Source: an uncultured Planctomycetota bacterium
GTDB taxonomy: Bacteria > Planctomycetota > Planctomycetia > Pirellulales > Pirellulaceae
NCBI GenBank assembly: GCA_963802295.1
Contig: CAWDIM010000005.1
Location: 93,780 to 157,779, forward strand
Length of the DNA: 64,000 nt
Reading direction: 5' to 3'
The translations under genes and the position numbers were made by a program. Below are positions 5,816 through 53,616 of this stretch, piece after piece. The notes beneath the pieces were generated by a model. It ran no database searches, had not been told where the DNA came from, and worked only from the letters and a program-made list of their open reading frames with translations. How positions within the stretch are numbered: position 1 is the stretch's first letter; every line of letters starts with the position of its first letter.

Positions 5816-5925
5816 GGCTCAGCGTGCCGGCCATGGTCGCCGTGGTCAGCAGCCAGTGGAGTGAAAGACGACGCGACGGGCCAATCATTATGAGTTCTTT
5901 CAGTAGGTTCAGTTCGCGAGGCAGA

Positions 5926-11480: not shown

Positions 11481-11617
11481 TGCGATAACTCCTTCTTGAG
11501 CCGGACGTTGCCCGTCACCAGTCAGTGGTCCCCGGGGTTCGGACGTGGCAGTTCGTATTGATTCAGGCCGTGAAAACCACAAATGAAAAATGAAAAATGA
11601 CAAGGGACTTTTTACCG

Positions 11618-36263: not shown

Positions 36264-36551
36264 AGGGACACGGCAATCACGCGACAGGGCGACATCGGAT
36301 CGCGATTATAGGTGATGGACTGTCGGGGCGAAAGAAATGAAACGAATAGCCCTTTTCGCGGGCTAGGGGCAGGCTGGTGCGGCTGTGCCGGCTCCATGAA
36401 ACGCACCGCTTACAGGGCGAGTTGGTCATTTCTGATTTGATTCGCGGCACCAGGCGCACCGGGCGACGGCGGAAATGAAATGACCGGTCAAGAAACAGCG
36501 AAGCCGCTTGTCGTCGCGTGACGTCGATCGACACGCACGGCGACAAACGGC

Positions 36552-36626
36552 CGGCAGTGGTCAGGGGCGGGGTCGAACCGCCGACACTCGGATTTTCAGT
36601 CCGATGCTCTACCAACTGAGCTACCT
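36552..36626. repeat. Left 75-bp direct repeat (attL-like) of the tRNA-Phe island
   Basis: The sequence is identical to 50361..50435 (cggcagtggtcaggggcggggtcgaaccgccgacactcggattttcagtccgatgctctaccaactgagctacct). Confidence 0.9.
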
Positions 36627-36630
36627 TCAC
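36558..36630 (-). other. Displaced tRNA-Phe copy with a disrupted acceptor stem (non-functional remnant)
   Basis: The 3' 69 nt are identical to the tRNA at 50367..50439. The 5' end reads GTGAAGG instead of GGTCAGG, which gives 3 mismatches against the 3' strand CCTGACC. Confidence 0.8.
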
Positions 36631-37280
36631 TGAACAAACCGCGAAATCCTCGGGGAATACGACGATTTCTGCTTGTGCGGGGGCAAATGCGGGGGCAATT
36701 GAAACGAAAACTGGCAGCCCGGACCCCGACCTGCGGGCCATCATCGACGCATGGCCGGCCCTGCCCGAAGCGATCAAGGCCGGCATCCTGGCGATGGTCA
36801 AGGCGGCACGGTAGCGGTGGTGAGGGATGACCATGACCACAGACGCGACTCGGCCGGAAAACGATCCGGATGGGGGCGGTCATGGGGCCCCCCACGCGAG
36901 GTATGTACGTTCGACCAGACCCCCAAATGGGCGTCACAATGGGTAAGCGGCTCGGCCGGGCGCTGGGGCGCGTGTTCGTGGACGTGGACGGCGACAACAA
37001 GCCATCGACCAGGATGCCCACCGCGCCGGCTACTGGCTGCAGGGGACGGGTACGGCCCCTTCCCGAACAGGGGAACTGGACGCCTCACGCGCGTGCGCGC
37101 GCGAGGTGCTTGCGGAATGGCCGAATTGCGTTTTTCGACTTCGCATCAAGTTGCGATCAGCAACCGGCCGGGCACAAATCCCACGGTTTTGGCATTCTTC
37201 CTGGGCGCAAGGCCGCGAAAAATTACAATGCAGGCAGGTGGGCGAGGGGGTATCTATTTCCTCGGGGAGAGAGCGGAAAC

Positions 37281-37810
37281 ATGGCGAGTAATATGGGACC
37301 GAGTGAGGGAGTAGGGCAACCGGAATCAGGGGCTTTGGCCGACACTGCCGAAATCCTGGCCGGTCTGTGTCAGCGGGTGGCGGATTTGGAGCGCCGCTTG
37401 GTAAAGAAGCGACCGGATACCAACGCCCGCCGCATGACGCGACTTGACCGTTGCCCGTTCGGCTGGCGGCCCCACCCGAAAAACCCGGCGGTGTTGATCG
37501 AGGATCCGATGGAGCAACGGACAATCTTCCGTTTGACCGAGCTGGCTCAAGACCCCAAAGCTTCGTATCGGGAAATCTGCCGCCGGCTCGATTTGGTCGG
37601 ATGCAAACGGCGTGGCGGGAAGAAATGGGCCGGGCGCACGGGCTGGTGCGCTCGATCTTGCGACGGGAGGGTATCCTAACCCCGGAGGATGCGAGGGCTG
37701 CCGTTCAGCGGCGGATTGCGGAGGCGAAGCGCAGGGCCGGAAACAAGTATATCTCCCTGAGACCCTCAGCGACGATGAGGCACGGGCGCGGGCAAGGGGC
37801 GAACGGCTAG
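37281..37810 (+). pseudogene. Recombinase-domain-only protein (serine-recombinase 'Recombinase' domain without the resolvase catalytic domain), one frame break
   Basis: From the ATG at 37281 it reads ...CPFGWRPHPKNPAVLIEDPMEQRTIFRLTELAQDPKASYREICRRLDLVGCKRRGGKKW, then shifts frame. ORF 37451..37810 continues AHGLVRSILRREGILTPEDARAAVQRRIAEAKRR. The break lies near 37621-37640. Confidence 0.5.
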
Positions 37811-37988
37811 AGTGTGGCCGCTAGGTGACCCGCTTGCTGGGCCGGGCCGCCCACCAACACGCCGCAGCACGTTGAAGATTCAGCCCCCTCTGGCGTATTA
37901 GTTTGATTGCTTCTGGTATCCGGCAGGAGTAGGGTGGTGCTGGCTGGGTTGGTGCGACAGCGGTGCGAGGGTCCACTAGCTGGAAGAG

Positions 37989-38768
37989 GTGAGCTATGAG
38001 CGCGTTGTTCTTGGAATGGCTACAGTGCTGCTGGTTCTCGCTGCTACTGCTGAAGTCGGCCGTGCTAGTGTGCTATGGCACAACGGAGATTTCGACAACA
38101 ATACGGGACTAATAAACGTTAGATACTCCAATGATCTTAATGACCCTAATAGAGGCGAAGCTGATGGGGTTTTCGATGACTTTGTAGTCTTTGGTGGTGG
38201 TTGGAATATTACGGACGTGTACGTGGATGTGATTGTGCCTAGAAGCCCAATGAATTTCATGGGTGCAGATTTCGAAATCCGTTCTGGAGTAACTGAGGGG
38301 GATGGTGGTACGTTGGTTCAGTCTGGAATGGGGCTTACCGCCACTTATACGGCAACTGGCGAATGGCAGGACTACGTTGGCAATGATTATGATCGATACA
38401 ACATTCTCATTTCTGATCTAGACTTCTCGCTCGCCGATGGAACATATTGGCTGATGGTACGCCCGGTGAGAATTGACCCAGCGGGAAACGCTGTCTTTGC
38501 TTTTGCATCAACGACAAGCGGCGCGAATGCAATTGGCATTCCAGCCGGCAACAATGGGAATTCGTTCTTATACGCTTACGGCGGGTGGTATAATTTCAGC
38601 GCTGAGTATTCCTACCTCGATTTTTCGATGGGGATCAGCGGCACGCCATCCTCGGTCGTCCCCGCCCCCAGCACTCTCACCTGCTTGCTCGGCGTTGGCG
38701 TGATGGTGTTCGGGATGGAGTGGTGGAAGAAACGTCGGCTCGAACGCCGAACGAGGGCCGCGGCGTGA
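37989..38768 (+). CDS. Secreted protein with PEP-CTERM-like C-terminal sorting signal
   Basis: 259-aa ORF with a signal peptide (MATVLLVLAATAEVGRA). The C-terminal VPAPSTLTCLLGVGVMVFGMEWWKKRR has the PEP-CTERM architecture (motif, TM helix, basic tail). The gene is more AT-rich than the flanks. Confidence 0.7.
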   Translation: MSYERVVLGMATVLLVLAATAEVGRASVLWHNGDFDNNTGLINVRYSNDLNDPNRGEADGVFDDFVVFGGGWNITDVYVDVIVPRSPMNFMGADFEIRSGVTEGDGGTLVQSGMGLTATYTATGEWQDYVGNDYDRYNILISDLDFSLADGTYWLMVRPVRIDPAGNAVFAFASTTSGANAIGIPAGNNGNSFLYAYGGWYNFSAEYSYLDFSMGISGTPSSVVPAPSTLTCLLGVGVMVFGMEWWKKRRLERRTRAAA

Positions 38769-39202
38769 GGTTTTGCAATCCCTCGCCGTCTGGTCAATCC
38801 TCTGCAGTGCCGGTTTTCTGATCGTCAGGCGGAGAAGACGACACGCCTGAAGAATCATCCGCCCACCAACACGCCGCAGCGGCCGCCACGAGTCGCCAAA
38901 AACTGCCGCAACTCATCTGGATCGGCGGCGCAGCACCGCTGCCATGATGGCGGCGCAGGCCTGTTGAACCTGGGGATCGGTCACGTCGATGGGGTGTTGT
39001 TTGGTGTCCATACAAGGTAATCACCAAACAGGCCCGAAAACCCTCACGAAGTTTGTCAAATTTTCCGGATTTCCCCCACCGTACCGGACACCTTCCGGGG
39101 ATCGCTAGTTGAATTGCCCTTCTGCGGCTAGTAAGGTGGCCTGCAACAATCGTTGCATAGTCCACTTTCGGTGCTGGATGTGTAACTGCGAGGGTTAATA
39201 AA

Positions 39203-39649
39203 ATGTCCTACGGCACAGGACGAACCGAGCCGCCTCCGGAACCGCCACCATTCATCATTGACACACCACCCCCTCGTTCTCGCCGGCGGTACAAGAAACG
39301 CAGACGGCAACCTAACAAACTCATTCTGATAGTGCTTCCGGTGTTCGCCATCTTTCTGTTACTTGTTGTCGCCAGTGCTCTTATTCAGGCGAGCAAGAGC
39401 CCTGCAGAGAAATTCCTTGACGAAGCTCGAGTGCATGCACGTATGGCTGTGCTTGAACGACTGAAACACCCCGACGATGCTGAATTTGTCGAGGTTGTGG
39501 CCAAGTACTCGGACAATAACCCGGACATTGTTCTAGTTGGCGGCAGAGTGCGTGCGGTGAATTCTTTTCGGGCACATTCGCAATTGCCGTTTCTGGTCCG
39601 CATCTCCAGAAGTAAGCGAACCATTCTCAGTGTTCAACTCGAGGAATAG
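39203..39649 (+). CDS. Hypothetical membrane-anchored protein
   Basis: 148-aa ORF. It has a proline/arginine-rich N-terminus, one TM helix (LILIVLPVFAIFLLLVVASALI), and a globular C-terminal part. No family was recognised. Confidence 0.45.
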   Translation: MSYGTGRTEPPPEPPPFIIDTPPPRSRRRYKKRRRQPNKLILIVLPVFAIFLLLVVASALIQASKSPAEKFLDEARVHARMAVLERLKHPDDAEFVEVVAKYSDNNPDIVLVGGRVRAVNSFRAHSQLPFLVRISRSKRTILSVQLEE

Positions 39650-40017
39650 TGGCTCACCATTTCATTCCTGCCCCGCAATCGCTTCGGGGAACCGAATTGC
39701 AGCACCGCACAAAACCCAGCCAGTCGGCACGCTGGCCTGTGAATGACGACAATCGGGGTGTTCGCCCAAGTGCTCATGCTGGCTGCCTTACCTCCCTGTG
39801 TCAGGACGGACGGACTGTGGCTGGGAAGCGCGAACATGGGGTGGGAAACCGCAGGACGTCCGATTTAAGAAGGCTCAAAAATGGGGGGTTAGGGGTATCG
39901 CTCGGGTGCCACCGTCTGCCGGGCTCCTAACCTCCAGACTCGAACCCTCATATCTCAAAACTCGCGCAATCAAACAGGCGTGCTGCGAATCGGTATACCA
40001 ACCAGATCCCTGGAACA

Positions 40018-40591
40018 TTACCGCCCACTGCCCGTCCGCTCAGCCAGCTCGGCCGCTCGCTGCCGATACGCTCTCTGACGGCACGCTGACGAGCAATATC
40101 TCGAATCGCTGCGAAAGGTGCTCGAATTGCTCGCCGCAGCAATCGCACGTCGCCTGCGGTGCCGTTCGTTCAGCACGTCGCCTTTCGCGTTTCCGCCTCT
40201 CGGTATCCTTTCGACGCACCGCAGCACAGTAGCAGCAGAATCGACACTCTGGCCCCTTCCAATGCGACCAGATAGGCCGCCCACTGCTGGCATTCGCGGA
40301 ACCTCGGCCGGCAGAACTCAAGCTTCTCAGTCTCGAAGTCGCGTAGAAGCGGTCTTTCTCCGAACGACTGTTGATCCAGAACCCCAGAAAAACGAGCAAT
40401 CCGCTCAATATAATCGCGGCGGAAAGAACCAGTGTCGGCAAGGGTAACCGTCCCCAAATGGATTTCCCTGCGTTCGCGGCAATCGGTGGTGGTGAGTGAT
40501 CCATTCTGCAATGCCCTCGTGATCTGGCGTCGTTTAACCCTCGCTCAAACCCGGCGGCTGCGGCTGGTCGTACTGTTGGGCTGTATGGCAC
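40018..40591 (-). pseudogene. Decayed hypothetical gene ending in a CxxC...YCSxxCRQRAYRQR zinc-ribbon-like tail
   Basis: Frame A reads ...CRFCCYCAAV...TCDCCGEQFE. Frame B continues TFRSDSRYCSSACRQRAYRQRAAELAERTGSGR*. The break lies near 40113-40125. The upstream part is ambiguous between two frames. Confidence 0.3.
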
Positions 40592-41641
40592 AACTGATCG
40601 GCGAACTTGTAGATGTCATCAAGCGAATCGAGGGGATGCCGCGTACAGTTCTTCTCGGCATCAAAGAGCCCGATGCACTTTTGCCCCTGGTTGAAAAACA
40701 GTCTGCAGATCGGTTTCCGGTTGTTGTCGTCGAGCAGAACACCGCAGTAGGTCTGCGTGTCTCGCATGACGACGCGGCCGGATGCGACCACCGACCGGAC
40801 TATCGACTTGACGATGTGGAAACCCTCCAGTTCTTCCAGCGTCGTCTCGACTAGCTTACCCTTGTCTTCGACAGTTCCTGCCGCGGCCTGCTCGGTGACT
40901 TCGGAAGTCGCTGTCGGAGCAGGCTCTCGGTCGAGCGCCGACTGCAGCCTCATCTTTACGCGATCATTCAGAAACTCGGCGCACGCCTTCTTCACCAATT
41001 CACCGAACTGATCACGCACAGCCTGCGTCATGCGACCTGAATAGACTCGCATGGTCAGCATGCGAACGAATTCCTCAGACGGGTTGACCCACTCGTCGGC
41101 CAGTACTCCTTTGATCCCCTTTGTGTACTTCAATTCACTGGCAGTCGACAGGATGTTGTCGAGGTCGAACGTCTCCTTGGCGAATTTCTTCAGCTCATCG
41201 ACAATGCCGTCCGTCAGTGACGCGCATGTCGACTTCGAGAAACGGTCGAGCATCCATCTTGTTCGGCGATTCGAGATCCGAGAAGAAGCGATAGTGGATG
41301 CCGTTGGTGAGCACGCCGAAACGCGCGTCGGTCACGGAGAAGTAGCGATACAGTTGGGAGCAATGAGCGGTGTCTAGGTTACAGGTTGCCGTCTTTGCTT
41401 CGATGAGGATGACAGGTTTACCTTCTCGCATGATGACGTAGTCGACCTTTTCTCCCTTCTTTGTGCCGACATCCGCTGTGAATTCCGGGATGACTTCGGT
41501 GGGGTCGAACACGTTGTAGCCCAGCGCGCTGATGAATGGCATGACCAGGGCGTGTTTCGTTGCCTCCTCCGTCTGCAAGTGATCCACGATCTTGGTCATT
41601 CGCGTCGACAGTTCCCTCAGTCGGTCGATCAGGTCCATCAT
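40534..41641 (-). pseudogene. Stand-alone type I restriction enzyme HsdR N-terminal (PD-(D/E)XK-like) domain protein, one frame break
   Basis: ORF 41195..41740 (likely start MMDLIDRL at 41641) carries TEEATKHALVMPFISALGYNVFDPTEVIPEFTADVGTKKGEKVDYVIMREGKPVILIEAK...QLYRYFSVTDARFGVLTNGIHYRFFSDL...PFLEVDM. ORF 40534..41253 continues SLTDGIVDELKKFAKETFDLDNIL.... The break lies near 41215-41235. Confidence 0.7.
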
Positions 41642-41954
41642 CTCTCTCCTGCCTGTGCACTGTATTGGGACGGAAATAGACCGATCCAGTCTCGCAAAAG
41701 TGGTTTCATAGGACAACACGCCGCGACACATTTTCGACATGAGCAGCCAACTGCCGGCGAGGTGGAATCCGGTCGAGCCTGCCCGCTCCCAAGACTACCA
41801 AGTCTTGCCGCAGTGTCATCTCCCACTCTCCCGTGCCTTCACACTCGTGCATCTCTCGGGGGGTGATGATTGCTTTCGGTATTGGGCGGGGCGCATGATG
41901 GTGGTCGGCTAGGTTGGTGTGACGCGGTGCGGTCCACTAGCTGAGAGGTGAGCC

Positions 41955-43070
41955 ATGAGACGGTTGCTTGTTGGGTTGGCGGCGGTTGTTCTGTTGGTCT
42001 TTGGAGTGGGTCAGGCGGTTGGGGCTTACACGTACACCTTCACCGACCTAGGAAACTTCGGCGGCCTGAGCCGTGACGCATACGGGATCAATGCCAGTGG
42101 GCAGGTTGTGGGTGCTGCATCTGACTCGTCGGGAGCCGCGCCGTGCTTTCCTCTACAGCGATGGGGTGATGACCGATTTGGGCGTGCTTCCCGGCCAGTT
42201 GTACAATTCGGCACGCGGGATCAATGCAAGTGGACAGGTCGTGGGACACTCCTACTCAAACAGCGGCGGCCACGCCTTCCTCTACAGCAACGGGGGGATG
42301 TTAGACTTGGGTACGCTGCCCGGCAGTCCGGACAACTCGCAGAGTTCGGCATACGACATAAACGACAGCGGGCAGGTGGTTGGGGTTAGTACGAAAGACG
42401 ACAGCGACAGCCACGCTTTCCTCTACAGCAACGGGGCGATGGCTGACTTGGGCGTGCTTCCCGGCGGTCGGGATAGTGCGGCGAACGGTATCAACGCCAG
42501 CGGACAGGTGGTGGGTGCTCCGGCACAAACAGCGGCAGCCACGCTTTCCTCTACAGCAACGGGGCGATGGCTGACTTGGGCGTGCTTCTCGGCGGTCGGA
42601 GTAGTGAGGCGTACGACATCAATGACGGCGGGCAGGTGGTCGGGTACTCCTTCGTAGCAAGCAGCGACTACGTCCACGCCTTTCTCTTTAATAATGGAGC
42701 AATGGCTGACTTGGGTACACTTCCTGGCGGCCTGAGCAGTGAGGCATTCGGCATCAACGCTGGCGGACAGGTTGTGGGGTACTCGCGAGTAGCAAGCGGC
42801 GACGAGCACGCCTTCCTCTACAGCAATGGGGAGATGGTGGACCTGAACAACCTGATTGATCCTGCACTCGGGGTCACGCTGGTACAAGCAAGGGACATCA
42901 ACGATTCCGGGCAAATTGTTGGATCTGGCAAGTACGCGAATGGGCTAGAAGTCGCCTTTCTCCTCACCCCCACCGTCGTCCCCGAACCCGGTTCTGTCGC
43001 TGTCTGGTCAATCCTCACTATCGTCGGCATCGCAATGATTCGCAGGCGACGGCGGACACAGGCAGCTTAG
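41955..43070 (+). pseudogene. HAF-repeat extracellular protein with PEP-CTERM anchor, two frame breaks
   Basis: ORFs 41955.., 42073.. and 42567..43070 together give a signal peptide (MRRLLVGLAAVVLLVFGVGQA), about 7 repeats of GINASGQVVG...HAFLYSNGxMxDLGxLPGG, and the C-terminal PTVVPEPGSVAVWSILTIVGIAMIRRRRR. The breaks lie near 42131-42145 and 42511-42525. Confidence 0.75.
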
Positions 43071-43351
43071 CCAACCAATACAATGACACCAAGAGCCACT
43101 CATTGCGGGTGGCCATTTTTGTTGGCGGACCGCATAGCTTCGCGGGCTAACACGGTGCGACTCCAGGTTGTCAAAGATCGAATCACGTTGCGCCAGTTGG
43201 CTCGATCTGTTCGGAGGCGGTACACTAACGGTATCGGGACGGCTGACCGGGTTGCAAACCGACGGCCAAGCGGTCCCTGGCGCGAATGCTGCGTCTCGCC
43301 TTTTCGCATCGTCGCGCTGGGGATCGGCCCGACCTACGAAAAGGCGAAATC

Positions 43352-43930
43352 ATGAGCGATGCCCGCAAACACGACTCTTCGCAACGTCAAGAGTTGGCTT
43401 GGCTGCTGGACGAGGCCGACTTGGCCGTTCAATCTTGGTGGCAGGGCGAGGCTGTGCTATGGCCGGACGTATTGACCAAGCTCGTTTCGAGGCTCCGGCT
43501 GTGCGGCTTCGACCTGGAAGCTGAGGGCATCGCGAGCGACGTTCAGGCTACGCCGAAAATTGGACGGCGGGGTTGCCGGAACCACAGCGACCTGATGCAG
43601 CTTCGACGGGCAGTTGTGGATCGGGTGCGGAAGCGGATTGTCGCTATTCGGAACGTGACGGAGAAGCCACGCAAACGAAAACGGCAGGCGATGAAAGCGA
43701 GCCCCCTCACGGCAAAGCAGACCGAAGCGGTGCAGGTGGTGGGCGAGTGTAAGGGCAGCTTCGCGGAAGCTGGGCGGCGGTTGGGGGTGGACCGAAAAAC
43801 GGTCCAGCAGCACTACCAAGCGGCAATGAAGAAGCTGGGAAAGTCGGCCGTCAAGCACGCAACCCAATCTCTGCCGAGCGACCGACGGGGGCAGGCGGAC
43901 CTTTCTGCCGACGATGACCGGCGACGATGA
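43352..43930 (+). CDS. Island regulator with C-terminal LuxR/sigma-70 region-4-type HTH
   Basis: The ATG is at 43352 (MSDARKH). The HTH segment is LTAKQTEAVQVVGECKGSFAEAGRRLGVDRKTVQQHYQAAMKKLG. Confidence 0.6.
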   Translation: MSDARKHDSSQRQELAWLLDEADLAVQSWWQGEAVLWPDVLTKLVSRLRLCGFDLEAEGIASDVQATPKIGRRGCRNHSDLMQLRRAVVDRVRKRIVAIRNVTEKPRKRKRQAMKASPLTAKQTEAVQVVGECKGSFAEAGRRLGVDRKTVQQHYQAAMKKLGKSAVKHATQSLPSDRRGQADLSADDDRRR

Positions 43931-44264
43931 CCGCGGGGTATCTCAGGGGTATGTTTCGGGGTAGTTTTGCAGTTTTCTTGGATTCTCGTTTGACCCCGTA
44001 ATTTCCCGAGTGCTTTCCACTTCTCAGGGGTATCGTTGCGCGGAAGATACCCCGATTCCCGGTTTGGTTGCGGCGTGTTTCGCAACCAACACCGGAGATC
44101 GAATCATGGCAAAGCACAAGTTGACGCGCGAGACGAGGAGCGGGCCTATGCCGATCTGGCACGGGCGGCCCGGCGACTGAGGGCGGTCCAGGCCACGGCG
44201 ACCAAGCGGCCGGCCAAGAAACCCAAGACCTCCAAGCGGCCGGCAAGCCGGAAGGGGGTGGCCG

Positions 44265-44531
44265 ATGGCGTCTAGCACCCCCACGACATCGCCCCAGGAC
44301 TTGCCCACGGCCGATGGCATCCAGGCTGAGCTGTTGACCTGCAAGGAAGCTGCCCAGTTGGCCGGAGTTGGCGAAAGAACCTGGTGGTCTTGGACCCGAA
44401 GCGGACTTGCCCCAAAGCCTATTTTCATTGGGCACGGCACGCGGCCAGCCTGCAGATACAGGCGGTCGGAAATCATGTCTTGGATTCAAGACGGTTGCCC
44501 CAGAGTAGACAAGGGGGACAACCAGCGATGA
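44265..44531 (+). CDS. AlpA/excisionase-family HTH DNA-binding protein
   Basis: 88-aa ORF. LLTCKEAAQLAGVGERTWWSWTRSGLAPKPIFIG...RYRRSEIMSWIQDG fits the excisionase/HTH_17 pattern. Its stop overlaps the next start (ATGA at 44528). Confidence 0.7.
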   Translation: MASSTPTTSPQDLPTADGIQAELLTCKEAAQLAGVGERTWWSWTRSGLAPKPIFIGHGTRPACRYRRSEIMSWIQDGCPRVDKGDNQR

Positions 44532-47338
44532 CACGACACGTGACGGAACGCAACGGATGGCAGGAAGTGACGGCGGCCGAACCCTGCCCGATATGCGCGA
44601 AGCCCGATTGGTGCCGACGTTCTCCGGATGGAACGAAGATAGCCTGCAGGCGAGAGGCACGCGGGGCGGTCAAGACCAAGCGATACAGGGACGGCAGCGA
44701 AGCGTACATACACGACCTGCAGCCTGACCGGCCCCAGGACGCCAACGGCAAGCCCAAGGCGAAGCGACAGCGAAAGACAAGCGGGGCGACGCCCACGGCA
44801 TCGGATGGCCCGATGCTGCGGGACTCGGCCACACCCTCGGACAGCGGCCAAGATACGATGGCCAAACGCGACGCGGGTTATCGTTGTCTGCTGGCCAAAC
44901 TGATCCTGTCCCCTGACCATCGCGACAACCTGAAGCATCGCGGGTTGTCCGATACGGACATCGACGGCGGCGGATACAGAACGTTGCCAGCCGCGGGACG
45001 GGCAACGTTCGTTAAGCGGGTGGCGGCGGAGCTGGGGCAGGACTTTGCAACGGTGCCCGGTTTCGTGATGGGGGAACGCGGCCCACGTATCGCAGCCCCT
45101 CCGGGGTTGCTTGTCCCGGTCCGTGACTTGGCGGGGCAGATTGTGGCGTTGAAGCTGCGGGCGGACAATCCGAGCGGTGACCACGGAAAATATCTTTATC
45201 TGAGTTCTGCCAAGTATGGTGGCCCAAGCCCCGGAAGCCCTGCCCATGTTCCGGCGGGTGTCTGTGGTCCGGCTGACTTAGCACGTATCACCGAAGGCGA
45301 ATTAAAGGCCGACGTGGCCTATCGGTTGTCCGGTGTGCCAACGTTGTCTTTCCCCGGTGTTGCATCCTGGCGGGTTGTGTTGCCCGTGTTGCAGGCCCTG
45401 CAGGCCAAAACGATTCGCGTTGCATTCGATGCGGACGCGGGGACAAACAAGCACGTTGCCAAGGCCCTACGCGATTGCTGCCAAGACCTGCAGGCGGCCG
45501 GTTTCGGTGTCGAGTTGGAACGGTGGCCCCAGGACGCCGGCAAAGGTGTTGACGACGTTTTGCAGGTGGGGCGGGCGGCGGACATCGAAATCTTGGCGGG
45601 CCCGGCGGCCCTGGCAGCGGCCGAAGAAATCGCCAAGGCGGCCGGTGTCAGTGATGACGACGGCGACGCGGACGAAGAAAAGGCCGAACGCAAGAGCCAA
45701 TCGACGCTGCTTGTCGAGTTGGCGGCGGTGGCTGAGTTGTGGCACACATCGGGGCAGGGCGACGCCTACGCGACGCTACCCGTTGCGAACCATCGGGAAC
45801 ACTGGCCCATTCGCAGCCGGACGTTCCGGCGGTGGCTTGGCCGGCAGTTTTTCGAGCAACACGGCAAGGCCCCCGGTTCGCAGGCCCTGCAGGATGCTAT
45901 GACCGTTCTCGAAGGGCAGGCGATTTTCGACGGCCCCGAATTCCCCGTTTTCGTCCGTGTTGCTGGCGATGGCGACAAGCTGTATCTGGACCTGGCTAAC
46001 GAGACGTGGCAGGTGGTGGAAATCGACGCGGACGGCTGGCGGATTCTGGACGCGGCCCCGGTTCGGTTTCGACGTGCCAGGGCCATGATGCCCCTGCCTA
46101 CGCCCACGGCCGGCGGCGACATTGGGGAACTGCAGCGGTTTGTCAACGTGACGCCCGACGATTGGCCCCTACTGCTTGGCTGGCTGGTGGCTGCATTCCG
46201 AGCGACCGGCCCCTATCCGGTTCTCGCCTTGCACGGTGAACAGGGTTCGGCCAAGAGCACCACGGCCCGGACGCTGCGAAACATCTTGGACCCGAACGCG
46301 GCCCCGTTGCGCTGCGAACCGCGGGAACCACGGGACTTAATGATTGCGGCCAACAATGGTTGGGTTATCGCCCTCGACAACCTCTCTTTTGTACCTGTCT
46401 GGTTGTCCGACGCCTTGTGTCGGTTGGCCACAGGCGGCGGCTTCGCCACGCGAACGCTGTACGAGAACGACGAAGAGACCATTTTCGATTCGATGCGGCC
46501 GGCAATCTTGACCGGCATTGAAGAGCTGGCCAACCGTTCCGACCTGCTTGACCGTTCCCTGATTCTGCAGTTGCCCAGGATACCCGACGCCAACCGACGA
46601 ACTGAGGCGGAACACTGGCGAGAGTTCCGGCAGGCCCACGGGCGGATACTCGGGGCGGTGCTTGACGCGGTATCGGCAGCGGTTCGCAGCCTGCCCACAA
46701 CGCATATCGAGCGACTGCCACGCATGGCGGACTTCGCGCTGTGGGCGACGGCGGCCGAAGCCGGACTTGGCTTGCAGCCCGACGAGTTTCTGACGGCCTA
46801 TCGTGGCAACCGTGACACGGCCAACGAAGCGGCCCTGGAATCAAGCCCGGTGGCCAAGCACATCTTGCAGGTGGCCGATGCTGGCGAGTGGCACGGCACG
46901 GCCGGCGAACTGCTGGAACACATCGAGTCGATGGCCAGCGACGGCGAGAAGCGGCTGAAAGCATGGCCCAAGAGCCCAGGGTCGTTATCGGGCATCCTGA
47001 AACGGCTTGCCCCGAACTTCCGGGCGGCCGGTGTCGAAATCGAGTTTGGCCACGAAGGACGCGGCCGGCAAAAGCGGCGGAACGTGACCATTAGAAAGAG
47101 TACGGATTCTTGCGTCCCCTGCGTCCCCAGCGTCCCCACCCCGGAAAAAGCCGTGTTTTGCGGGGACGGTGGGGACGCAAGTGGCCCGAGTGGGGACGCA
47201 AGACAGCCCGGCGGGGACGCTGCGGGGACGCAAACCACGGGTGACGTAAACCCAAGCGGGGCAACGGTGGGGACGCAAGGGGACGGTGGGGACGCAAAAT
47301 TGCATCCACATTCTGAAAGGGTGCGGGTGACGATATGA
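44528..47338 (+). CDS. Replication protein: N-terminal Cys-cluster, Toprim-like (DUF3854-type) primase domain and C-terminal P-loop NTPase
   Basis: The ORF runs 44384..47338; the ATG at 44528 (MTRHVTERNGW) is coupled to the excisionase stop. It has CPICAKPDWC, a Toprim-like E (RITEGELKADV) and DxD (RVAFDADAG), and the Walker-A-like LHGEQGSAKSTTAR followed by VIALDNLS. The 936-aa frame is intact. Confidence 0.8.
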   Translation: MTRHVTERNGWQEVTAAEPCPICAKPDWCRRSPDGTKIACRREARGAVKTKRYRDGSEAYIHDLQPDRPQDANGKPKAKRQRKTSGATPTASDGPMLRDSATPSDSGQDTMAKRDAGYRCLLAKLILSPDHRDNLKHRGLSDTDIDGGGYRTLPAAGRATFVKRVAAELGQDFATVPGFVMGERGPRIAAPPGLLVPVRDLAGQIVALKLRADNPSGDHGKYLYLSSAKYGGPSPGSPAHVPAGVCGPADLARITEGELKADVAYRLSGVPTLSFPGVASWRVVLPVLQALQAKTIRVAFDADAGTNKHVAKALRDCCQDLQAAGFGVELERWPQDAGKGVDDVLQVGRAADIEILAGPAALAAAEEIAKAAGVSDDDGDADEEKAERKSQSTLLVELAAVAELWHTSGQGDAYATLPVANHREHWPIRSRTFRRWLGRQFFEQHGKAPGSQALQDAMTVLEGQAIFDGPEFPVFVRVAGDGDKLYLDLANETWQVVEIDADGWRILDAAPVRFRRARAMMPLPTPTAGGDIGELQRFVNVTPDDWPLLLGWLVAAFRATGPYPVLALHGEQGSAKSTTARTLRNILDPNAAPLRCEPREPRDLMIAANNGWVIALDNLSFVPVWLSDALCRLATGGGFATRTLYENDEETIFDSMRPAILTGIEELANRSDLLDRSLILQLPRIPDANRRTEAEHWREFRQAHGRILGAVLDAVSAAVRSLPTTHIERLPRMADFALWATAAEAGLGLQPDEFLTAYRGNRDTANEAALESSPVAKHILQVADAGEWHGTAGELLEHIESMASDGEKRLKAWPKSPGSLSGILKRLAPNFRAAGVEIEFGHEGRGRQKRRNVTIRKSTDSCVPCVPSVPTPEKAVFCGDGGDASGPSGDARQPGGDAAGTQTTGDVNPSGATVGTQGDGGDAKLHPHSERVRVTI

Positions 47339-47947
47339 CAGCGGTCGAACTGCTGGCGGAATGCCAAGCCCGACAAATCGACCTGCTGGCCCACGGAGGG
47401 CAGTTGGACATCGACGCCCCGGCCGGTGCCCTGACGCCTGACCTATTGGACCGGCTGAAGGCCCACAAAGCCGACCTGCTGGCGATCCTGCGGGGCGATG
47501 CCGAGGCTCTGCAAGCCCAGCATGAAGCCGCAGCCGAGCGCGACGCGATAGTGTGGTGCGAGAGCGGGCCGGCGCACGAAGTGGATGCCGCGCTGTGGGC
47601 GGCGATTGACGGTTTCGGGGGGGCTCGAGCCGGTGGAGGTGGACGCCCACGGCGGCGCGGGGCAGGATCTGGCAGCGGCTGCAGCCCCACGCCCCCGGTC
47701 TGCGGTTCCCGTTGCGGTCGAGTGGCCCGGAGAGGCTGCGGACTTCTGCCTGTTGCTGACGGCCGATGACCTGCCCGAGGTGCCATTCCGGTTGAATGCT
47801 TGGACGGAGGTATGCGACGCGGCCAAGATGCTGCGGTGGCTGCAAGCGGACATCCGGCGCGGCCCCAGCGGACCACGGGCGTTCTACGCTGCCCTGCAAG
47901 CTGACCTACTGGCCCTGCAGCGGTTCGCCCTGCAGGTCCACGACTGA
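47335..47947 (+). pseudogene. Hypothetical island protein with TubC-N-like N-terminal docking motif, frame break in a G7 run
   Basis: The N-terminus is MTAVELLAECQARQIDLLAHGGQLDIDAPAGALTPDLLDRLKAHKADLLAIL. After ...AAIDGFGG the sensible continuation (LEPVEVDAHGGAGQDL...LQADIRRGPSGPRAFY) lies in ORF 47585..47947. The G7 run is at 47617-47623. The start is ATGA-coupled to the upstream stop. Confidence 0.55.
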
Positions 47948-48018
47948 GACAACTTTCGCCCACGGCAGCGGCCGGATGCTGCGGGCGGTTTACTTCCTTC
48001 CGGCCGATAGGTGATGAA

Positions 48019-48409
48019 ATGAACAAGACCAACACGCCGATTTTCGATGCGGTTTTATCGCATCTACGGGCGACGGGCGAACTGCCGAACTTTGGCGGCC
48101 CGGTTGAAGCACGGCTTAGCCTGATGCTGCATTCCGGCGGCGGGGTCGCGAGCCCGGACGTTTTCGAGCTGTCTTGGGCGAATGAATCGCTGTCGATTAT
48201 CGGCATCGACCCGGCGATTGCTGACGTCTTGGCGCGTACAGACCACGCCGGAAGACGCGCCCCAGGTGGAAGAAACCATCTACCAAGAAGGTGCGGTGGT
48301 CGAGTTTCTGCTGCTGCTGACGGCACACTGGCACGCAGAATCGACGCAGACGGGGCAACGCGACCACAACGTATCGAACTCCGGCCCGGTGCGTCAGAAC
48401 GCATCCTAG
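48019..48409 (+). pseudogene. Hypothetical island gene, probably frame-broken
   Basis: ORF 48019.. reads plausibly to ...IADVLARTDH. ORF 48182..48409 gives the plausible tail PEDAPQVEETIYQEGAVVEFLLLLTAHWHAE.... No family was recognised. Confidence 0.3.
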
Positions 48410-48557
48410 GCGATGTTCCGCGAAACAGCGGGAAAAGGCGAGAACTGGCGACGGTCCCCACGGGGAAGAATAACGAGAATAGGATGCTTGACCGCTAGCC
48501 CAGTATCCGATAGACTTACACTAGGTTAGCAGACAAGTAAAGCAATGGGGCCAGACA

Positions 48558-48783
48558 ATGGCGAGAAAACGCAGAGAACCGAAGTTGCTGAGCGATCAGT
48601 TGCGGGAGATCCTGGACAGCGGCCCGATGACTCGATACCGGCTGTCCATAAGAGGCGGGAGTAGACCAAGGGCAGCTAAGCCGGTTTGTTCTCGGCAAAG
48701 GGCAGATGACATTCAACACGCTGGATCGCATCGGGCAGGTACTCAAGTTGCGGCTGGTTGTGGAGTCGGACCGGGACGCATGA
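48558..48783 (+). pseudogene. Small HTH (XRE-like) regulator, one frame break
   Basis: MARKRREPKLLSDQLREILDSGPMTRYRLSI is followed, in another frame, by EAGVDQGQLSRFVLGKGQMTFNTLDRIGQVLKLRLVVESDRDA*. The break lies at ataagag, 48645-48655. Confidence 0.5.
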
Positions 48784-48835
48784 TTGTCAGTTGACCACGG
48801 GCGGGCAGGCCCTCGGAAGAAAGGCAGGCGAGACG

Positions 48836-50428
48836 ATGGCAACGGTTTACAAACGGCGAGAACTGCGGCCGATTCCTGACGGGGCGGAGACCATCGGCAC
48901 GTATCGCGGCAAGCCCTACGCGACCTGGACGGACGCCAAGGGCAAGGCCCAGCGGGCGCCCTGAGCGCGGACGGCAAGCATATCATCCAGTTGGCGACGT
49001 GCTACACGGCCCAGTATTTCGATGAGACCGGGAAGCGACGCAAGGCCCCCACGGGATGCCAAGACAAGGCCGAAGCTCTGCGATACGCGAACCATCTGGA
49101 AAACCAAGCCCGGAAACGGCGGACGGGCGAAATCGACGTGAAGGCCGAACGCTACGGGAAGGAAGCCCGGCGGCCCCTGTTGGAGCACGTTGCGGACTTC
49201 AAGCAGTATCTTGCGGACAAGGGCAACACCGCACAACACGTTTCCCAGACAACCCGACAGATACAGGCAATCATCGACCAGACCAACGCGGAACATGTCG
49301 CGGACTTGGACGGGGCAACAGTGATGCGGGCGATCGGCACACTGCGGGAACGCAAGGACAACCCGGCAAGTCTGCGGACCTGCAATTCCTACATGCGATC
49401 CGTCAAGACGTTTACCCGGTGGCTGCGGGTAGAGAAGCGGACTGCCGAAGATGCCTTGGCGGGGTTGTCGCAATTCAACGAAGCAACCGACCGGCGGCAT
49501 ACGCGGCGAGAACTGACGCCCGAGGAATTGACCTACCTGCTGCAGCACGTCGAAAACGCTGTCGGTGAGAACTACCGGCTATCCGGACCCGTGCGGGCTA
49601 TGGCCTATCGCGTGGCCCTCGGGACGGGATTTCGGGCTAAGGAACTTCGGTCGTTGACCCCGGCATCATTCAACCTGGACGGCGATCCGCCCACGGTGAC
49701 AGTGGCCGCGGCCTACTCGAAGCGGCGGCGGCTGGACGCGCAGCCGATCCGACCCGACTTGGCCGAGGTGTTGCGGCCCTGGCTGCCGGAGTTCCCGCGG
49801 GACGAACAAGTATTTCGGCTGCCCCACAACACGTCGAAGATGTTTCAACGCGATTTGGCAGCGGCCCGAGCGGCCTGGATCGACGAAGCAACGATCGGAC
49901 GAGGAACGCCAGCGCCGGGAGAAATCTGACTTCCTGCGTTACCGGAACGCGGCGGGTGACGTGGCGGACTTCCACTGCCAGCGGCATACCTACATTTCCG
50001 GCATCGTGGCAGGCGGGGCGAGTGTCAAGACGGCCCAAGAGCTGGCCCGGCATTCCACGCCGGTTCTAACCATCGGCCGATACTCCCACGCCCGGTTACA
50101 CGACCTGCAAGGTGCCTTGGATGCCCTGCCTGACCTGCAGCCCCAGGACCCGACGCCCCAAACGACGGCCTACGCGATGGCGACGGGGACCGACGGTGAA
50201 ACGGCCGAAGTTTCGCGGGGGCAGATGCGGGGGCAGTACGGACGCAAAACGCTGCAAGAAGTTGCGAATTGTGGCGAACGGCCCGAAGATTGCGAGGGCG
50301 ACGGCGACACGCCACAAGTCTTGTCTATGGCAAGACTTCGCGATACGTCGCGAGACACTGCGGCAGTGGTCAGGGGCGGGGTCGAACCGCCGACACTCGG
50401 ATTTTCAGTCCGATGCTCTACCAACTGA
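48836..50428 (+). pseudogene. Tyrosine recombinase/integrase of the island, two frame breaks
   Basis: The gene is read as three pieces. The first is the ATG at 48836 (MATVYKRRELRPIPDG...AQRAP). The second is ORF 48991..49929 (LATCYTAQYFDETGKRR...GTGFRAKELRSL...). The third is ORF 49961..50428 (DFHCQRHTYISGIVAGG...LTIGRYSHARL). The breaks lie at the ccc run 48959-48961 and near 49881-49895. The 3' end runs into the tRNA. Confidence 0.85.
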
Positions 50429-50435
50429 GCTACCT
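50361..50435. repeat. Right 75-bp direct repeat (attR-like) of the tRNA-Phe island
   Basis: The sequence is identical to 36552..36626. Confidence 0.9.
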
Positions 50436-50439
50436 GACC
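50367..50439 (-). tRNA. tRNA-Phe (anticodon GAA)
   Basis: The reverse complement is GGTCAGGTAGCTCAGTTGGTAGAGCATCGGACTGAAAATCCGAGTGTCGGCGGTTCGACCCCGCCCCTGACCA. The 7-bp acceptor, D, anticodon (loop CTGAAAA) and T arms (GGTTCGA) all pair. It is 73 nt long and no CCA is encoded. Confidence 0.93.
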
Positions 50440-51025
50440 TAATTCGTTCTGTGCAATGGACTTACGGAGCGGCTCTGGCTGCGGCAAGACGTCCGTTGAC
50501 AACCGTTAGGCAATGTGGCCAACGGGCTTCGAGCGTCCCGGATCTCCCGCGAAACGAGTCCCCAGCTCTCGTCGGCTCGTACTCAACCCGAGCCAGACAC
50601 CCCCTTCCCGAATTTTCCAGTCTAGCAAAAAAGCATTGGTCAGCAACCCCGCCCAGCCCGCATTGAAAAGCAAAAAAAAGGTCAGTACTGCGGCGCGATG
50701 GAGACCATCAACGATCTGCAGCAAGAGATCAGTCCAACGCTTCTGTTCCGCTCGCTCGTGCAGCGTCCGCGGACTGAGGACTGGCCAGCTGCTGCGCGTG
50801 AGACGCGACGTGTGCCCGCCGAACCCGACGTGGGGAGAATAAAACGGCGACTTGCCCAGGCCGATACGGGCTGCGAGTTGATTCGGTCGCGACGGCCCGC
50901 CGGTCTGTTGGTACACCCGAGGACGCGACCGAAGGAGATATTAACGCTCCTGGACGTTCAAGAGTTCTCGAACTGATCCATCCTCGAGTCGAGCTTCCGC
51001 AGGCCAAACGTGTTTCCCAGATCAT

Positions 51026-51471
51026 GGGAAATCGGGAAATCGGGAAATCGGAACAGGGAACGCGGAACGCGGAATGGGGAATGGTGAATGGTGAATGGGG
51101 AATGGTGAATGGGGAATGGTGAATGGTGAATGGTGAATGGTGAATGGTGAATGGTGAATGGTGAATGGTGAATGGTGAATGGGGAATGGGGAATGGGGAA
51201 TGGGGAATGGTGAATGGGGAATGGGGAATGGGGAATGGGGAATGGGGAATGGGGAATGGGGAATGGGGAATGGGAATGGGGAATGGGGAATGGGAATGGG
51301 GAATGGGAATGGGGAATGGGGAATGGGGAATGGGGAATGCGGAATGGGGAATGCGGAATGGGGAATGCGGAATGGGGAATGCGGAATGGGAATGCGGAAT
51401 GCGGAATGCGGAATGCGGAATGCGGAATGAAGGGAATGCGGAATGCGGAATGCGGAATGCGGAATGCGGAA
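51026..51471. repeat. Heptanucleotide microsatellite (about 60 units; blocks of GGGGAAT, GGTGAAT and GCGGAAT, led by three GGGAAATC units)
   Basis: The repeat is directly visible. The unit variants are arranged in blocks rather than mixed at random. Confidence 0.95.
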
Positions 51472-51591
51472 CGAGCAGGGAGGCGACGCTCAGGAGGATC
51501 GCTCGCATCTCGAGTCTTCGGCCTGGGAGAGAGAGCGGTCTGGAGGAGATTTCCTTGTCACACGCCGATTGTCAGTGACTTACTTCCTGAG

Positions 51592-51737
51592 CCGCCCCGA
51601 AGCGTCCACCTCGACTTCCGCATTCCGCATTCCGCATTCCCTATTGCGCACCTCGCACCCGCTTCCCACCCGCATCCGGACGCTTCCCCACGTCAGTACA
51701 GAGTGTTCTGGGCCATATGCGTGTCAGCCGCTACAGC
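51592..51737. repeat. About 140-bp direct repeat, copy 1 (starts with inverted CATTCCG heptamers)
   Basis: gccgccccgaagcgtccacctc...ccgcattccgcattccgcattccctattgcgcacctcgcacccgcttcccacccgcatccggacgcttccccacgtcagtacagagtg.tctgggccatatg...gccgctaca. It is near-identical to 51778..51915. Confidence 0.9.
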
Positions 51738-51777
51738 TTCCATGGTGACATTGACATCGGAAGCACGCGTGAATAAA

Positions 51778-51915
51778 CCGCCCCGAAGCGTCCACCTCAC
51801 ATTTCGCATTCCGCATTCCCTATTGCGCACCTCGCACCCGCTTCCCACCCGCATCCGGACGCTTCCCCACGTCAGTACAGAGTGCTCTGGGCCATATGAG
51901 TGCAAGCCGCTACAA
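51778..51915. repeat. About 140-bp direct repeat, copy 2, abutting the 53-bp array
   Basis: It has the same sequence as 51592..51737, apart from one fewer heptamer and a few substitutions. It runs directly into unit 1 of the 53-bp array. Confidence 0.9.
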
Positions 51916-52657
51916 GGTAGCTGGCCAGTTGTGGCCCCACCGGAATAAATCCGGTGGAAGCCTGGCAGGGTAGCTGGCCAGTTGTGGCCCCACCGGAGTA
52001 AATCCGGTGGAAGCCTGGCAGGGTAGCTGGCCAGTTGTGGCTCCACCGGAGTAAATCCGGTGGAAGCCGGGCACGGTAGCTGGCCAGTTGTGGCTCCACC
52101 GGAATAAATCCGGTGGAAGCCGGGCACGGTAGCTGGCCAGTTGTGGCTCCACCGGAGTAAATCCGGTGGAAGCCTGGCAGGGTAGCTGGCCAGTTGTGGC
52201 TCCACCGGAGTAAATCCGGTGGAAGCCTGGCAGGGTAGCTGGCCAGTTGTGGCTCCACCGGAGTAAATCCGGTGGAAGCCTGGCACGGTAGCTGGCCAGT
52301 TGTGGCTCCACCGGAGTAAATCCGGTGGAAGCCTGGCACGGTAGCTGGCCAGTTGTGGCTCCACCGGAATAAATCCGGTGGAAGCCGGGCACGGTAGCTG
52401 GCCAGTTGTGGCTCCACCGGAATAAATCCGGTGGAAGCCGGGCACGGTAGCTGGCCAGTTGTGGCTCCACCGGAATAAATCCGGTGGAAGCCTGGCAGGG
52501 TAGCTGGCCAGTTGTGGCTCCACCGGAATAAATCCGGTGGAAGCCGGGCACGGTAGCTGGCCAGTTGTGGCTCCACCGGAATAGATCCGGTGGAAGCCTG
52601 GCACGGTAGCTGACCAGTTGTGGCTCCACCGGAGTAAATCCGGTGGAAGCCGGGCAA
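51916..52657. repeat. Tandem array of 14 x 53-bp units, each with an 8-bp perfect inverted repeat (CCACCGGA-ntaaa-TCCGGTGG) and a CTGGCCAG palindrome
   Basis: The unit is ggtagctggccagttgtggc[c/t]ccaccgga[a/g]taaatccggtggaagcc[t/g]ggca[g/c]. The phase is exactly 53 bp for 14 units. Variation is confined to about 4 positions, and there are no spacers. Confidence 0.95.
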
Positions 52658-52732
52658 GGTTAATCGCGGCATGCTCTCTGATATTGAGGTGTTAGTTGAT
52701 AACACTCGCGCAGGGTGATCGCATGTTTGGAG

Positions 52733-52956
52733 AAGAATCCGAAATTCGAATCACAGAAACACCAACGACAAAGACGGGGAAGGCTGGCAGACGCGGCAGC
52801 CAGTAGCCTGCGCAGTGGTGAGAATCTGCTTGTGGCCCGTTACCCCAGTTTTGCCGGCAGCGGAGGTTTTGGATTTTGAGTTTTGGATTTCGAATTTGTT
52901 TAGGTTTTCGATATTCGGATTTCGGATTTCCTGATTGGTTGCGGCCGCAGGCCGCG
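52733..52956. repeat. MITE-like composite repeat, copy E (reverse orientation)
   Basis: It contains gaatccgaaattcgaatcac, a short purine tract, the reverse core cagtggtgagaatctgcttgtggcccgttaccccagttttgccggcagcggagg, and the arm ttggattttgagttttggatttcgaatttgtttaggttttcgatattcggatttcggatttcctgattggttgcggccgcaggccgcg. Confidence 0.8.
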
Positions 52957-53073
52957 TGAAGTAAATCCGGTGGAAGGCCGGCGAAGCAGATCGCGGCAGG
53001 CTCCCTGGCGCGATGCGATATGGCATTGCTGGCGCCTATTGCGCTGCGCAGAAGCAGCAGAGGCGTTTGCTCT

Positions 53074-53520
53074 TTATTCTGGAGCGGCCGTCGTTAATTC
53101 AATCCGGCCCATATCGGCGGGTTTCCCCTTCTCGACCTTGATCTTGAAGGTCGATGTTTTGGGGTCGCTGTATTTGTCTTTTAGCTTGTCGGGTCCGCCG
53201 TATTGCATACTGAAGAGGTTCAGTTCGCCCCACACAAACGTCACGACGTAGTCGCCTTCCGGGACGCCATCACCCAGTTCGTACGTCGAGATCGAGAATT
53301 TGCCATTTTCCTCGGTCATCGCAGAGGAATAGGTCGGCAACTCCTGATCCATGCCTTTCGTGTCGGTCAGCGTTACTTGCACCGCGGCGGCCGGTTTGCC
53401 ATCGACGATAAGTTCGCCGGTGACGGGAAAAGTCTCTTTTCGTGGAGGGCCTTTCGGTCCGCAGGATGTGAGCAAGCAAACTACCGACAACAGCGCCACA
53501 AAGTGCAACCGAGTGATCAT
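53074..53520 (-). CDS. Small lipoprotein (beta-sandwich-like), partner gene of the DUF1559 protein
   Basis: The ORF runs 53074..53613. The likely start at 53520 (MITRLHFVALLSVVCLLTSCGP) has a lipobox LTSC. VTGELIVDGKPAAAVQVTLTD is carboxypeptidase-regulatory-domain-like. Confidence 0.6.
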   Translation of the reverse strand: MITRLHFVALLSVVCLLTSCGPKGPPRKETFPVTGELIVDGKPAAAVQVTLTDTKGMDQELPTYSSAMTEENGKFSISTYELGDGVPEGDYVVTFVWGELNLFSMQYGGPDKLKDKYSDPKTSTFKIKVEKGKPADMGRIELTTAAPE

Positions 53521-53616
53521 AGGGGGATCCTCCCGCGAGACGGAAACTGGAACTAGGTTACTTGCCGGGCCTTGGTCCTGCGAACGAACACCATGCGAAC
53601 AGCTCTGCTGCACGAA

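Follow-up and report, generated by a model that had tools for sequence, protein, structure and literature searches.

The question raised by this locus is why a chromosome of the Pirellulaceae carries two tRNA-Phe sequences in direct orientation, and what kind of DNA lies between them. The locus belongs to an uncultured Planctomycetota bacterium (assembly GCA_963802295.1, contig CAWDIM010000005.1) and was analysed within a stretch of 64,000 nucleotides (nt), positions 93,780 to 157,779 of that contig, which is called the window hereafter. The answer, held with good confidence, is that the segment 36552-50435 of the window is a site-specific integrative island with a replication module of its own, for which the 3' part of the tRNA-Phe(GAA) gene served as the insertion site. 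It is an ordinary element of a known kind, and its planctomycete family is without a description in the literature searched, where nothing on planctomycete islands or satellites was found. Few mobile elements of the Planctomycetota are known to have been characterized.

The island is delimited by a 75-nt direct repeat, 100% identical between 36552-36626 (attL) and 50361-50435 (attR) by repeat search and by direct reading. The two copies are spaced 13,809 nt apart, so the element between them measures 13,734 bp; by a rough estimate, the chance expectation for a perfect 75-mer pair in 64 kb is about 1e-36. The repeat is composed of 69 nt of tRNA-Phe (50367-50435 in the right copy) and 6 nt of trailer (50361-50366). 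ARAGORN calls two tRNA-Phe(GAA) genes, both on the minus strand, at 36557-36631 and 50366-50439, and the corresponding Rfam calls score 73.8 bits at 50367-50439 and 54.2 bits at 36558-36630. The right copy is intact: a host 5' end, GGTC, is fused to the 69-nt 3' core, the 5' GGTCAGG pairs perfectly with the 3' CCTGACC of the acceptor stem, and the minimum free energy of the fold is -31.2 kcal/mol. The left one is a displaced pseudo-copy which begins with GTGAAGG (GTGA in place of GGTC), has three mismatches in the acceptor stem and folds at -20.8 kcal/mol, about 10 kcal/mol less stably; the original host hairpin or terminator stands just downstream of it, at about 36470-36551. The repeats thus derive from the 3' portion of a tRNA gene that is complete at one end of the island and partial at the other. 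Because the attachment site of the element brings along 69 nt of tRNA-Phe and the 6 nt of trailer, the tRNA at attR is intact after integration, and the displaced copy at attL, by putA, is 5'-defective. A preliminary description made from the letters alone had claimed the perfect 75-bp repeat with this composition, the complete cloverleaf of the right copy and the GTGAAGG end with three mismatches of the left copy, and all of these were confirmed at the same coordinates. Two tRNA-Phe-like sequences in direct orientation are also what an ordinary gene duplication would give, with unrelated chromosomal DNA in between, but the identity ends exactly 4 nt short of the tRNA 5' end and takes in the 6 nt of trailer, the acceptor stem of the left copy is spoiled, an integrase gene reads into the right copy, and a related genome has a single tRNA-Phe at this locus. 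The probability of such a duplication is practically negligible.

The interpretation of the 13.7-kb segment as a site-specific insertion that rebuilds tRNA-Phe is supported by that related genome. The PutA fragment adjoining attL has its best matches in metagenome-assembled genomes of the Pirellulaceae and Pirellulales, and in the closest syntenic relative, L005 (Pirellulaceae), the identity of PutA is 86% at the amino acid (aa) level. The order in L005 is putA, about 620 bp, the single tRNA-Phe, about 280 bp and a homologue of the window gene 57262-59127; from there the synteny extends to 63 kb. The 13.7-kb insert is absent between putA and the far flank, that is, L005 represents the unoccupied site in a different species. 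Integration into the tRNA with its rebuilding had been proposed from the letters, together with a search for an empty tRNA-Phe site where the putA flank joins the far flank, and it is this arrangement that L005 shows. In a second relative, L008, the interval from tRNA-Phe to putA holds 4.5 kb of ordinary genes with no integrase. In addition, contigs of a close relative of the host in a hot-spring metagenome (X22) extend over both flanks (36302-36540 and 50453-50668) and cover almost none of the island interior; this evidence is weak, as the depth is low and contigs show presence, not absence. Metagenome joints at the att sites were considered as evidence of excision and disregarded, their sides being very short and the tRNA being shared by many organisms. 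After excision, the predicted junction sequences would be ..GCGAGACACTG + 75-bp core + TCACTGAACAAACC.. for attP and ..GGCGACAAACGGC + core + GACCTAATTCG.. for attB at the emptied site.

The integrase gene lies at 48836-50428 on the plus strand and encodes a tyrosine integrase (Int) of about 532 aa with a putative arm-binding domain at the N-terminus; frameshifts are present near 48958 and 49890, and the stop codon is inside the att core. Intact homologues of 523-546 aa align over the full length of the read-through integrase, in three segments that lie in frames 2, 1 and 2 of the window and change frame at these two positions. The catalytic set (R, K, HxxR, H and Y) is invariant in the homologues and fully retained in the read-through of the window gene. 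The final 20 or so codons are antisense to tRNA-Phe in the att core (50361-50428; the attL counterpart is 36554-36616), and this C-terminal tail is conserved: residues 519-539 of the homologue P0122 match the attL copy too, at 95% identity.

Candidate binding sites for the N-terminal domain of this enzyme are found at both ends of the island. All four copies of the 9-mer GCGGGGGCA in the 64 kb are located shortly inside the island ends, one pair at each end with a spacing of 12 bp. The left-arm pair (36677-36697, plus strand, starts 36677 and 36689) is situated 51 bp inside attL and the right-arm pair (50215-50235, plus strand, starts 50215 and 50227) 146 bp inside attR. The geometry is shared by relatives, in which the sequence of the repeat varies with the integrase. 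In L085 and L088, whose integrases are 75-76% identical to that of the window, the identical 9-mer motif is present at the same distance. L086, with an integrase about 60% identical, has a different 9-mer pair, of GCCAGCA type, at both equivalent positions. L146 keeps the GCGGGGGCA motif, and its integrase is a mosaic in comparison with the window (L146 8427-9980 versus window 48836-50428): the first 41 residues are 88% identical, the remainder is 37-41% identical, and the target is tRNA-Met(CAT). Repeat and integrase thus vary together, as expected of arm-type sites that are recognized by the N-terminal domain of Int; this domain would bind the 9-mer pairs. Judging from these comparisons, the module for arm binding seems to be exchanged independently of the catalytic/core module.

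The same relatives define the island's ends and its family. The neighbourhoods of the primase-helicase gene share the order alpA, primase-helicase, TubC_N gene, small helix-turn-helix (HTH) gene and integrase, and end at a tRNA. The targets are tRNA-Ser (L001 and L003), tRNA-Asn (L002), tRNA-Met (L146) and tRNA-Phe (L086/L087, L085 and L088). L086 is bounded by a perfect 48-bp direct repeat of its own, 10.1 kb, in tRNA-Phe, and L087 likewise has a 48-bp repeat. The left end of the window island is homologous to the left ends of L086 and L146, with GAACAAACCGCGAAATCCTCGG, the 9-mer pair and a small open reading frame (ORF) in common, and therefore the island boundary is exact. The conserved backbone is made up of this left-end ORF (36675-36830, plus strand, 51 aa, ..PDLRAIIDAWPALPEAIKAGILAMVKAA), the alpA/primase-helicase/TubC_N operon, an XRE-type repressor and the integrase running into the tRNA. 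Across the family the backbone is conserved and the cargo variable, L001 for instance having a set of SNF2, NOV_C and protein-kinase genes. Contigs from wastewater (X1) cover only 45.2-50.4 kb of the island. As a separate observation on L086, 91 nt of host flank at its attL (1365-1455) are 81% identical to its inner right end (11470-11560); the homology between the element and the region downstream of the tRNA thus extends past the perfect 48-bp core, which could reflect an older occupant or a captured tRNA trailer. L146 was also considered as a circular contig and rejected as such, since its 16-nt end overlap lies in the att core and would be equally expected if the element were integrated.

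The replication module is a tightly packed operon on the plus strand. It is headed by an AlpA-like HTH_17 protein (44265-44531, phrog_66), whose gene is not adjacent to int; the stop codon of alpA overlaps the start of the primase gene (44528-47338), and the stop codon of the latter overlaps the start of the TubC_N-domain partner (47335-47944), both junctions being ATGA. The partner, recognized by profiles, has a frameshift at the G7 run 47617-47623, whereas the frame of the replication protein itself (P0001, 936 aa) is intact. P0001 consists of a zinc ribbon, a DnaG-type Toprim primase (DUF3854), a D5-like helicase of superfamily 3 (SF3) and a C-terminal domain, with conserved motifs that include an N-terminal CxxC..C..C, the Toprim-like DUF3854 of Pfam and a Walker A motif. 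Its AlphaFold model has a mean pLDDT of 79.5. The N-terminal half of the fold matches the zinc-binding and RNA-polymerase domains of bacterial DnaG primases, and the C-terminal half matches the SF3 helicases NrS-1, poxvirus D5/E5, African swine fever virus PrimPol and the SaPI5 primase-helicase (7ola), in each case with probability 1.0; among viral models, full-length phage primase-helicases match. The 936-aa protein is a fusion of a DnaG-type primase and an SF3 helicase. Its layout is that of P4 alpha and SaPI Pri-Rep, and a role in replication agrees with the experimental evidence that DUF3854-helicase proteins of cyanobacteria act as plasmid Rep proteins (PMC10079941).

Homologues of the primase-helicase are numerous in planctomycete metagenomes, and the helicase domain is common in IMG/VR contigs. 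Exact-protein look-ups of the window primase-helicase gave no match, and comparison with PHROGs, NCBIfam, PADLOC and PDB sequences gave nothing useful, only Pfam DUF3854 and the fold search being informative. The broad alignment A1 was too divergent to serve as a query, and the A2 viral and metagenome scans mostly gave distant relatives that share the helicase domain only. In four such distant helicase relatives (L090, L100, L215 and L223), a TubC_N-domain gene is immediately downstream, so that the pair resembles a conserved module of two genes. The D8/D11 repeats in the end of the primase gene and in the TubC_N gene were weighed as origin iterons; they follow repeated peptide motifs. From this gene content a simple life cycle may be drawn, in which AlpA would act as excisionase and/or activator, the excised circle would be copied by the primase-helicase with its TubC_N partner, and a small XRE-type protein would hold the element silent. 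The last is encoded at 48558-48783 on the plus strand (74 aa when read through, with an extra base at 48649) and matches the repressor family phrog_4268.

Structural, packaging and transfer genes were sought by a six-frame scan of the island, in which 81 stop-to-stop ORFs of at least 75 aa were compared with PHROGs and Pfam. The matches were an endonuclease, the integrase, the excisionase, regulators and one weak DNA-methyltransferase; there was none to capsid, tail, lysis, terminase, relaxase or type IV secretion system (T4SS) genes, and no Pfam match to a coupling protein. The preliminary description was right here too, both in the genes that it named (a tyrosine integrase abutting, and in fact overlapping, the intact tRNA, an AlpA-like excisionase, a Toprim/P-loop replication protein and HTH regulators, all of which were found by profile searches) and in its statement that capsid, tail, lysis and conjugation genes are missing. 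One explanation for the missing genes is that the island is what remains of a prophage or of an integrative and conjugative element (ICE) after loss of structural or transfer genes. An integrase, an excisionase-like gene, a repressor-like HTH gene and replication genes beside a tRNA are the layout of a prophage early region as well, but fragments of structural or T4SS genes are absent from every frame, and the relatives with defined ends (L086, L002 and L146) are all compact, about 10 kb, with the same backbone and left-end ORF. Because the relatives are uniformly compact, the small size is the normal state of the family and not a truncation, which makes a remnant of this kind very improbable.

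Packaging genes are present in the closest backbone relatives. L146, with a primase 87% identical to that of the window, and L002 carry a TerS homologue followed by a TerL of lambda-GpA type (phrog_57 and phrog_15) at 364-2866 and 5264-7770, respectively, and L086 has a weak TerS-like match at 2300-2878. L146, L002 and L086, each about 10 kb long, have no capsid genes. The family is read as satellite-like because a terminase in the absence of capsid genes is meaningful only if the element is packaged into the capsids of another phage. That the family spreads by means of helper phage capsids, and that the window copy has lost or never had the packaging module and carries cargo instead, is given a chance a little short of even; the window copy would then need a helper for packaging recognition too, or would no longer be mobile. 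A more specific version is put forward tentatively, as a possibility clearly below even: the backbone would be a lineage of phage satellites in the Planctomycetota, whose full members divert packaging by a TerS and TerL of their own and borrow the capsids, and the window copy would have swapped its packaging module for cargo. Such a backbone would include an arm-binding tyrosine integrase with an exchangeable catalytic domain and tRNA target. The preliminary description had called the island replicative and non-autonomous, either satellite-like or mobilisable; it is the satellite-like part that gained support, indirectly, from these relatives with TerS and TerL and no capsid.

The mobilisable part corresponds to a phage-independent, plasmid-like element, which would excise, replicate as a plasmid and be transferred by vesicles, transformation or conjugative mobilisation. 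In favour of it, packaging genes are absent from this copy, the DUF3854-helicase architecture of P0001 is that of the cyanobacterial plasmid Rep proteins CyRepA1/2, and tycheposons are known cargo-carrying, tRNA-integrating replicative elements without phage genes. Proteins with DUF3854 and a helicase have been experimentally shown to be plasmid Rep proteins in cyanobacteria (PMC10079941). Nevertheless, no relaxase, coupling protein or T4SS gene is encoded in the six frames, the TerS and TerL of the closest backbone relatives have no role in plasmid transfer, and the helicase domain is frequent in viral contigs of IMG/VR; a plasmid-like way of life is therefore considered unlikely, with a small but appreciable chance.

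Several observations weigh against the main reading, a replicative island of a possibly satellite-like family. Neither an excised circle nor a same-species empty site was seen, and the strain is contained in no public sequencing run, the best word shares being 0.17 (island) and 0.40 (host). Two interruptions fall in the integrase gene, so that a full-length integrase is not encoded as sequenced, and at least six further 1-nt indels lie in other genes of the island. The number of GCGGGGGCA copies alone is not improbable (four observed versus 1.85 expected; 10 of 100 shuffles reach four), and for this reason the argument for arm sites rests on where the 9-mers are placed and on how they vary with the integrase. 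IMG/VR contains no exact match to either the left-end or the arm motif. The six-frame scan and tblastn found no packaging or helper-interference gene in this island, and no helper phage is known. In particular, the region 36.8-38.0 kb shows no terminase remnants, tblastn with the TerS and TerL of the relatives finding nothing in the window; the overlapping ORFs at 36870-37679 on the plus strand (region to about 37.8 kb), which have no profile match, occupy the place of TerS/TerL in L146.

The interruptions, at which the preliminary description had hinted by its mention of a frame correction, bear on whether the island is still active. At least eight small-indel shifts are found in its 13.7 kb (two in the integrase, two in the HAF-repeat gene and one each in the XRE-type HTH, TubC_N, endonuclease and zinc-ribbon genes), as against one in the host genes that could be compared with L005 and L008, about 15 kb in all. 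Moreover, in Illumina contigs of two wastewater runs, whose identity to the island is about 97%, the extra base at 48649 is missing and the frame at 48957-48966 is restored; therefore, intact versions exist. These data would agree with an inactive, decaying remnant, that is, with a recent integration after which the integrase function was lost and the island became fixed cargo DNA. On the other hand, all the lesions are indels of 1-2 nt and the read-through genes show no nonsense codons, Int keeps its catalytic residues, the 75-bp repeats are identical, and one shift sits in a G7 run, a pattern which fits consensus errors of an assembly at least as well. Host genes are broken likewise: putA lacks a CG dinucleotide after 34028 in comparison with a metagenome contig of 98% identity, an HtrA-like protease falls into two parts near 6380 (6369-6968 and 5926-6393), and at 54450-54600 a DUF1559 gene has no N-terminus in frame. 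This suggests that the window comes from an assembly with indel errors. Since host genes are broken in the same way, assembly error and decay would both account for the shifts; decay is a real possibility that falls short of being probable, and with two frameshifts in Int this copy may no longer be mobile.

In comparison with known systems, the integrative island resembles several of them in part. With phage-inducible chromosomal islands (PICIs) it shares a size of 10-15 kb, site-specific integration with direct repeats, int, alpA, a primase-helicase and the lack of structural and lysis genes; furthermore, the SaPI5 primase-helicase 7ola matches the C-terminal half of P0001 in fold, and relatives of the island carry TerS. 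It differs from PICIs in that terS, ppi, cpm and rpp are absent from the six-frame scan and in its DnaG-type primase, which has no PHROG match. Capsid-forming PICIs (cfPICIs) differ in having their own capsid, head-tail adaptor/connector and TerL, which are absent from the window. TerL is a hallmark of cfPICIs only in the SatelliteFinder paper (PMC10085698), and L146 and L002, with TerS and TerL but without capsid, fit neither PICI nor cfPICI as defined there; Planctomycetes are not mentioned in the satellite surveys PMC10085698 and PMC9618062. Satellite P4 has in common with the island a tRNA target, a tyrosine integrase, an AlpA-like HTH protein and a single protein that combines a Toprim-type primase, an SF3 helicase and a C-terminal domain, whereas homologues of psu, sid and delta were not found by the six-frame scan, no match to the NCBIfam "P4 family primase" was obtained and the host is a planctomycete. 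In a wider sense, P0001 belongs with the Toprim primase-SF3 helicase class (P4 alpha, SaPI Pri-Rep and D5), with which it shares the zinc ribbon and Toprim N-terminus and the SF3 P-loop C-terminus.

Tycheposons of Prochlorococcus also have a tRNA-targeting tyrosine recombinase, an excisionase and a primase/helicase, and they constitute one family in which some members carry cargo and others packaging genes (bioRxiv 10.1101/2020.12.28.424599). However, they are defined by their own integrase lineage and hallmark profiles, and their integrase is described as inward-facing, whereas that of the island reads outward into the tRNA. CyRepA1 and CyRepA2 (PMC10079941) likewise combine an N-terminal, Toprim-like DUF3854 and a C-terminal helicase in one protein, which in their case drives autonomous replication; unlike P0001, which has a helicase half of SF3 (D5-like) fold and is encoded in an integrated island, they are plasmid-borne and have a helicase of DEXDc type. 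ICEs and integrative and mobilisable elements differ by relaxase, coupling protein and T4SS genes, for which the 81 ORFs gave no Pfam match, and prophages by capsid, tail, terminase and lysis genes, which the six-frame scan likewise did not find.

The window island alone is ordinary and well delimited, and the more interesting parts are the modularity of arm sites and integrase and the relatives with a terminase only. In the former, the arm-binding domain and arm sites appear to follow the backbone, and the catalytic domain and core site to vary with the tRNA that is targeted; in the latter, if the relatives with TerS and TerL prove to be satellites, they would represent a type equipped with a complete terminase and lacking a capsid. 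For mobile elements of planctomycetes, the island and its relatives offer a point of entry, since their ends are defined, the target tRNA of the integrase is known and there are candidates for the arm sites and the replicon; these parts could seed integration vectors and plasmids for the Pirellulales.

The remaining genes of the island are mostly cargo, namely a PD-(D/E)XK endonuclease, two secreted proteins of PEP-CTERM type and a sigma-like regulator; in PADLOC, no known defence system was recognized in the cargo. From left to right, a secreted protein of 259 aa with a signal peptide and a PEP-CTERM-like C-terminal anchor (37989-38768, plus strand) is read from the translation and has no profile match, and a small membrane-anchored protein of 148 aa (39203-39649, plus strand) matches phrog_13160/2320, of unknown function. 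On the minus strand, a small protein with a C-terminal zinc-ribbon motif ..RYCSSACRQRAYRQR and an apparent frameshift near 40118 (40018-40591) is known from its translation only. It is followed by the endonuclease, of PD-(D/E)XK/HSDR_N type by profiles (40534-41740, minus strand, frameshift near 41215); its read-through of 368 aa matches phrog_4225 from end to end with an E value of 1.4e-124. The HAF-repeat secreted protein with a PEP-CTERM anchor (41955-43070, plus strand, frameshifts at about 42143 and 42530) was recognized by TIGR02913 (E 3e-91), and the sigma-70 region-4/LuxR-like HTH regulator of 214 aa (43286-43930, plus strand) by profiles. An ORF of 159 aa without profile match lies between the TubC_N and XRE-type genes (48019-48498, plus strand).

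Beyond the island, a second stretch of the window is absent from L005, at 50444-57208 on the 5' side of tRNA-Phe. Tandem repeats abound in it, among them (GGGAATG)x60 at 51056-51471 and a 53-nt unit with a hairpin, in 14 copies at 51916-52660; there are also 179-nt repeats (51621 and 51800), a DUF1559 gene and a PEP-CTERM gene that is split. In its repeat regions, this stretch shows very high depth in several unrelated metagenomes. L005 itself has a 108-nt tandem repeat of about four copies at 6344-6769, directly downstream of its unoccupied tRNA-Phe.

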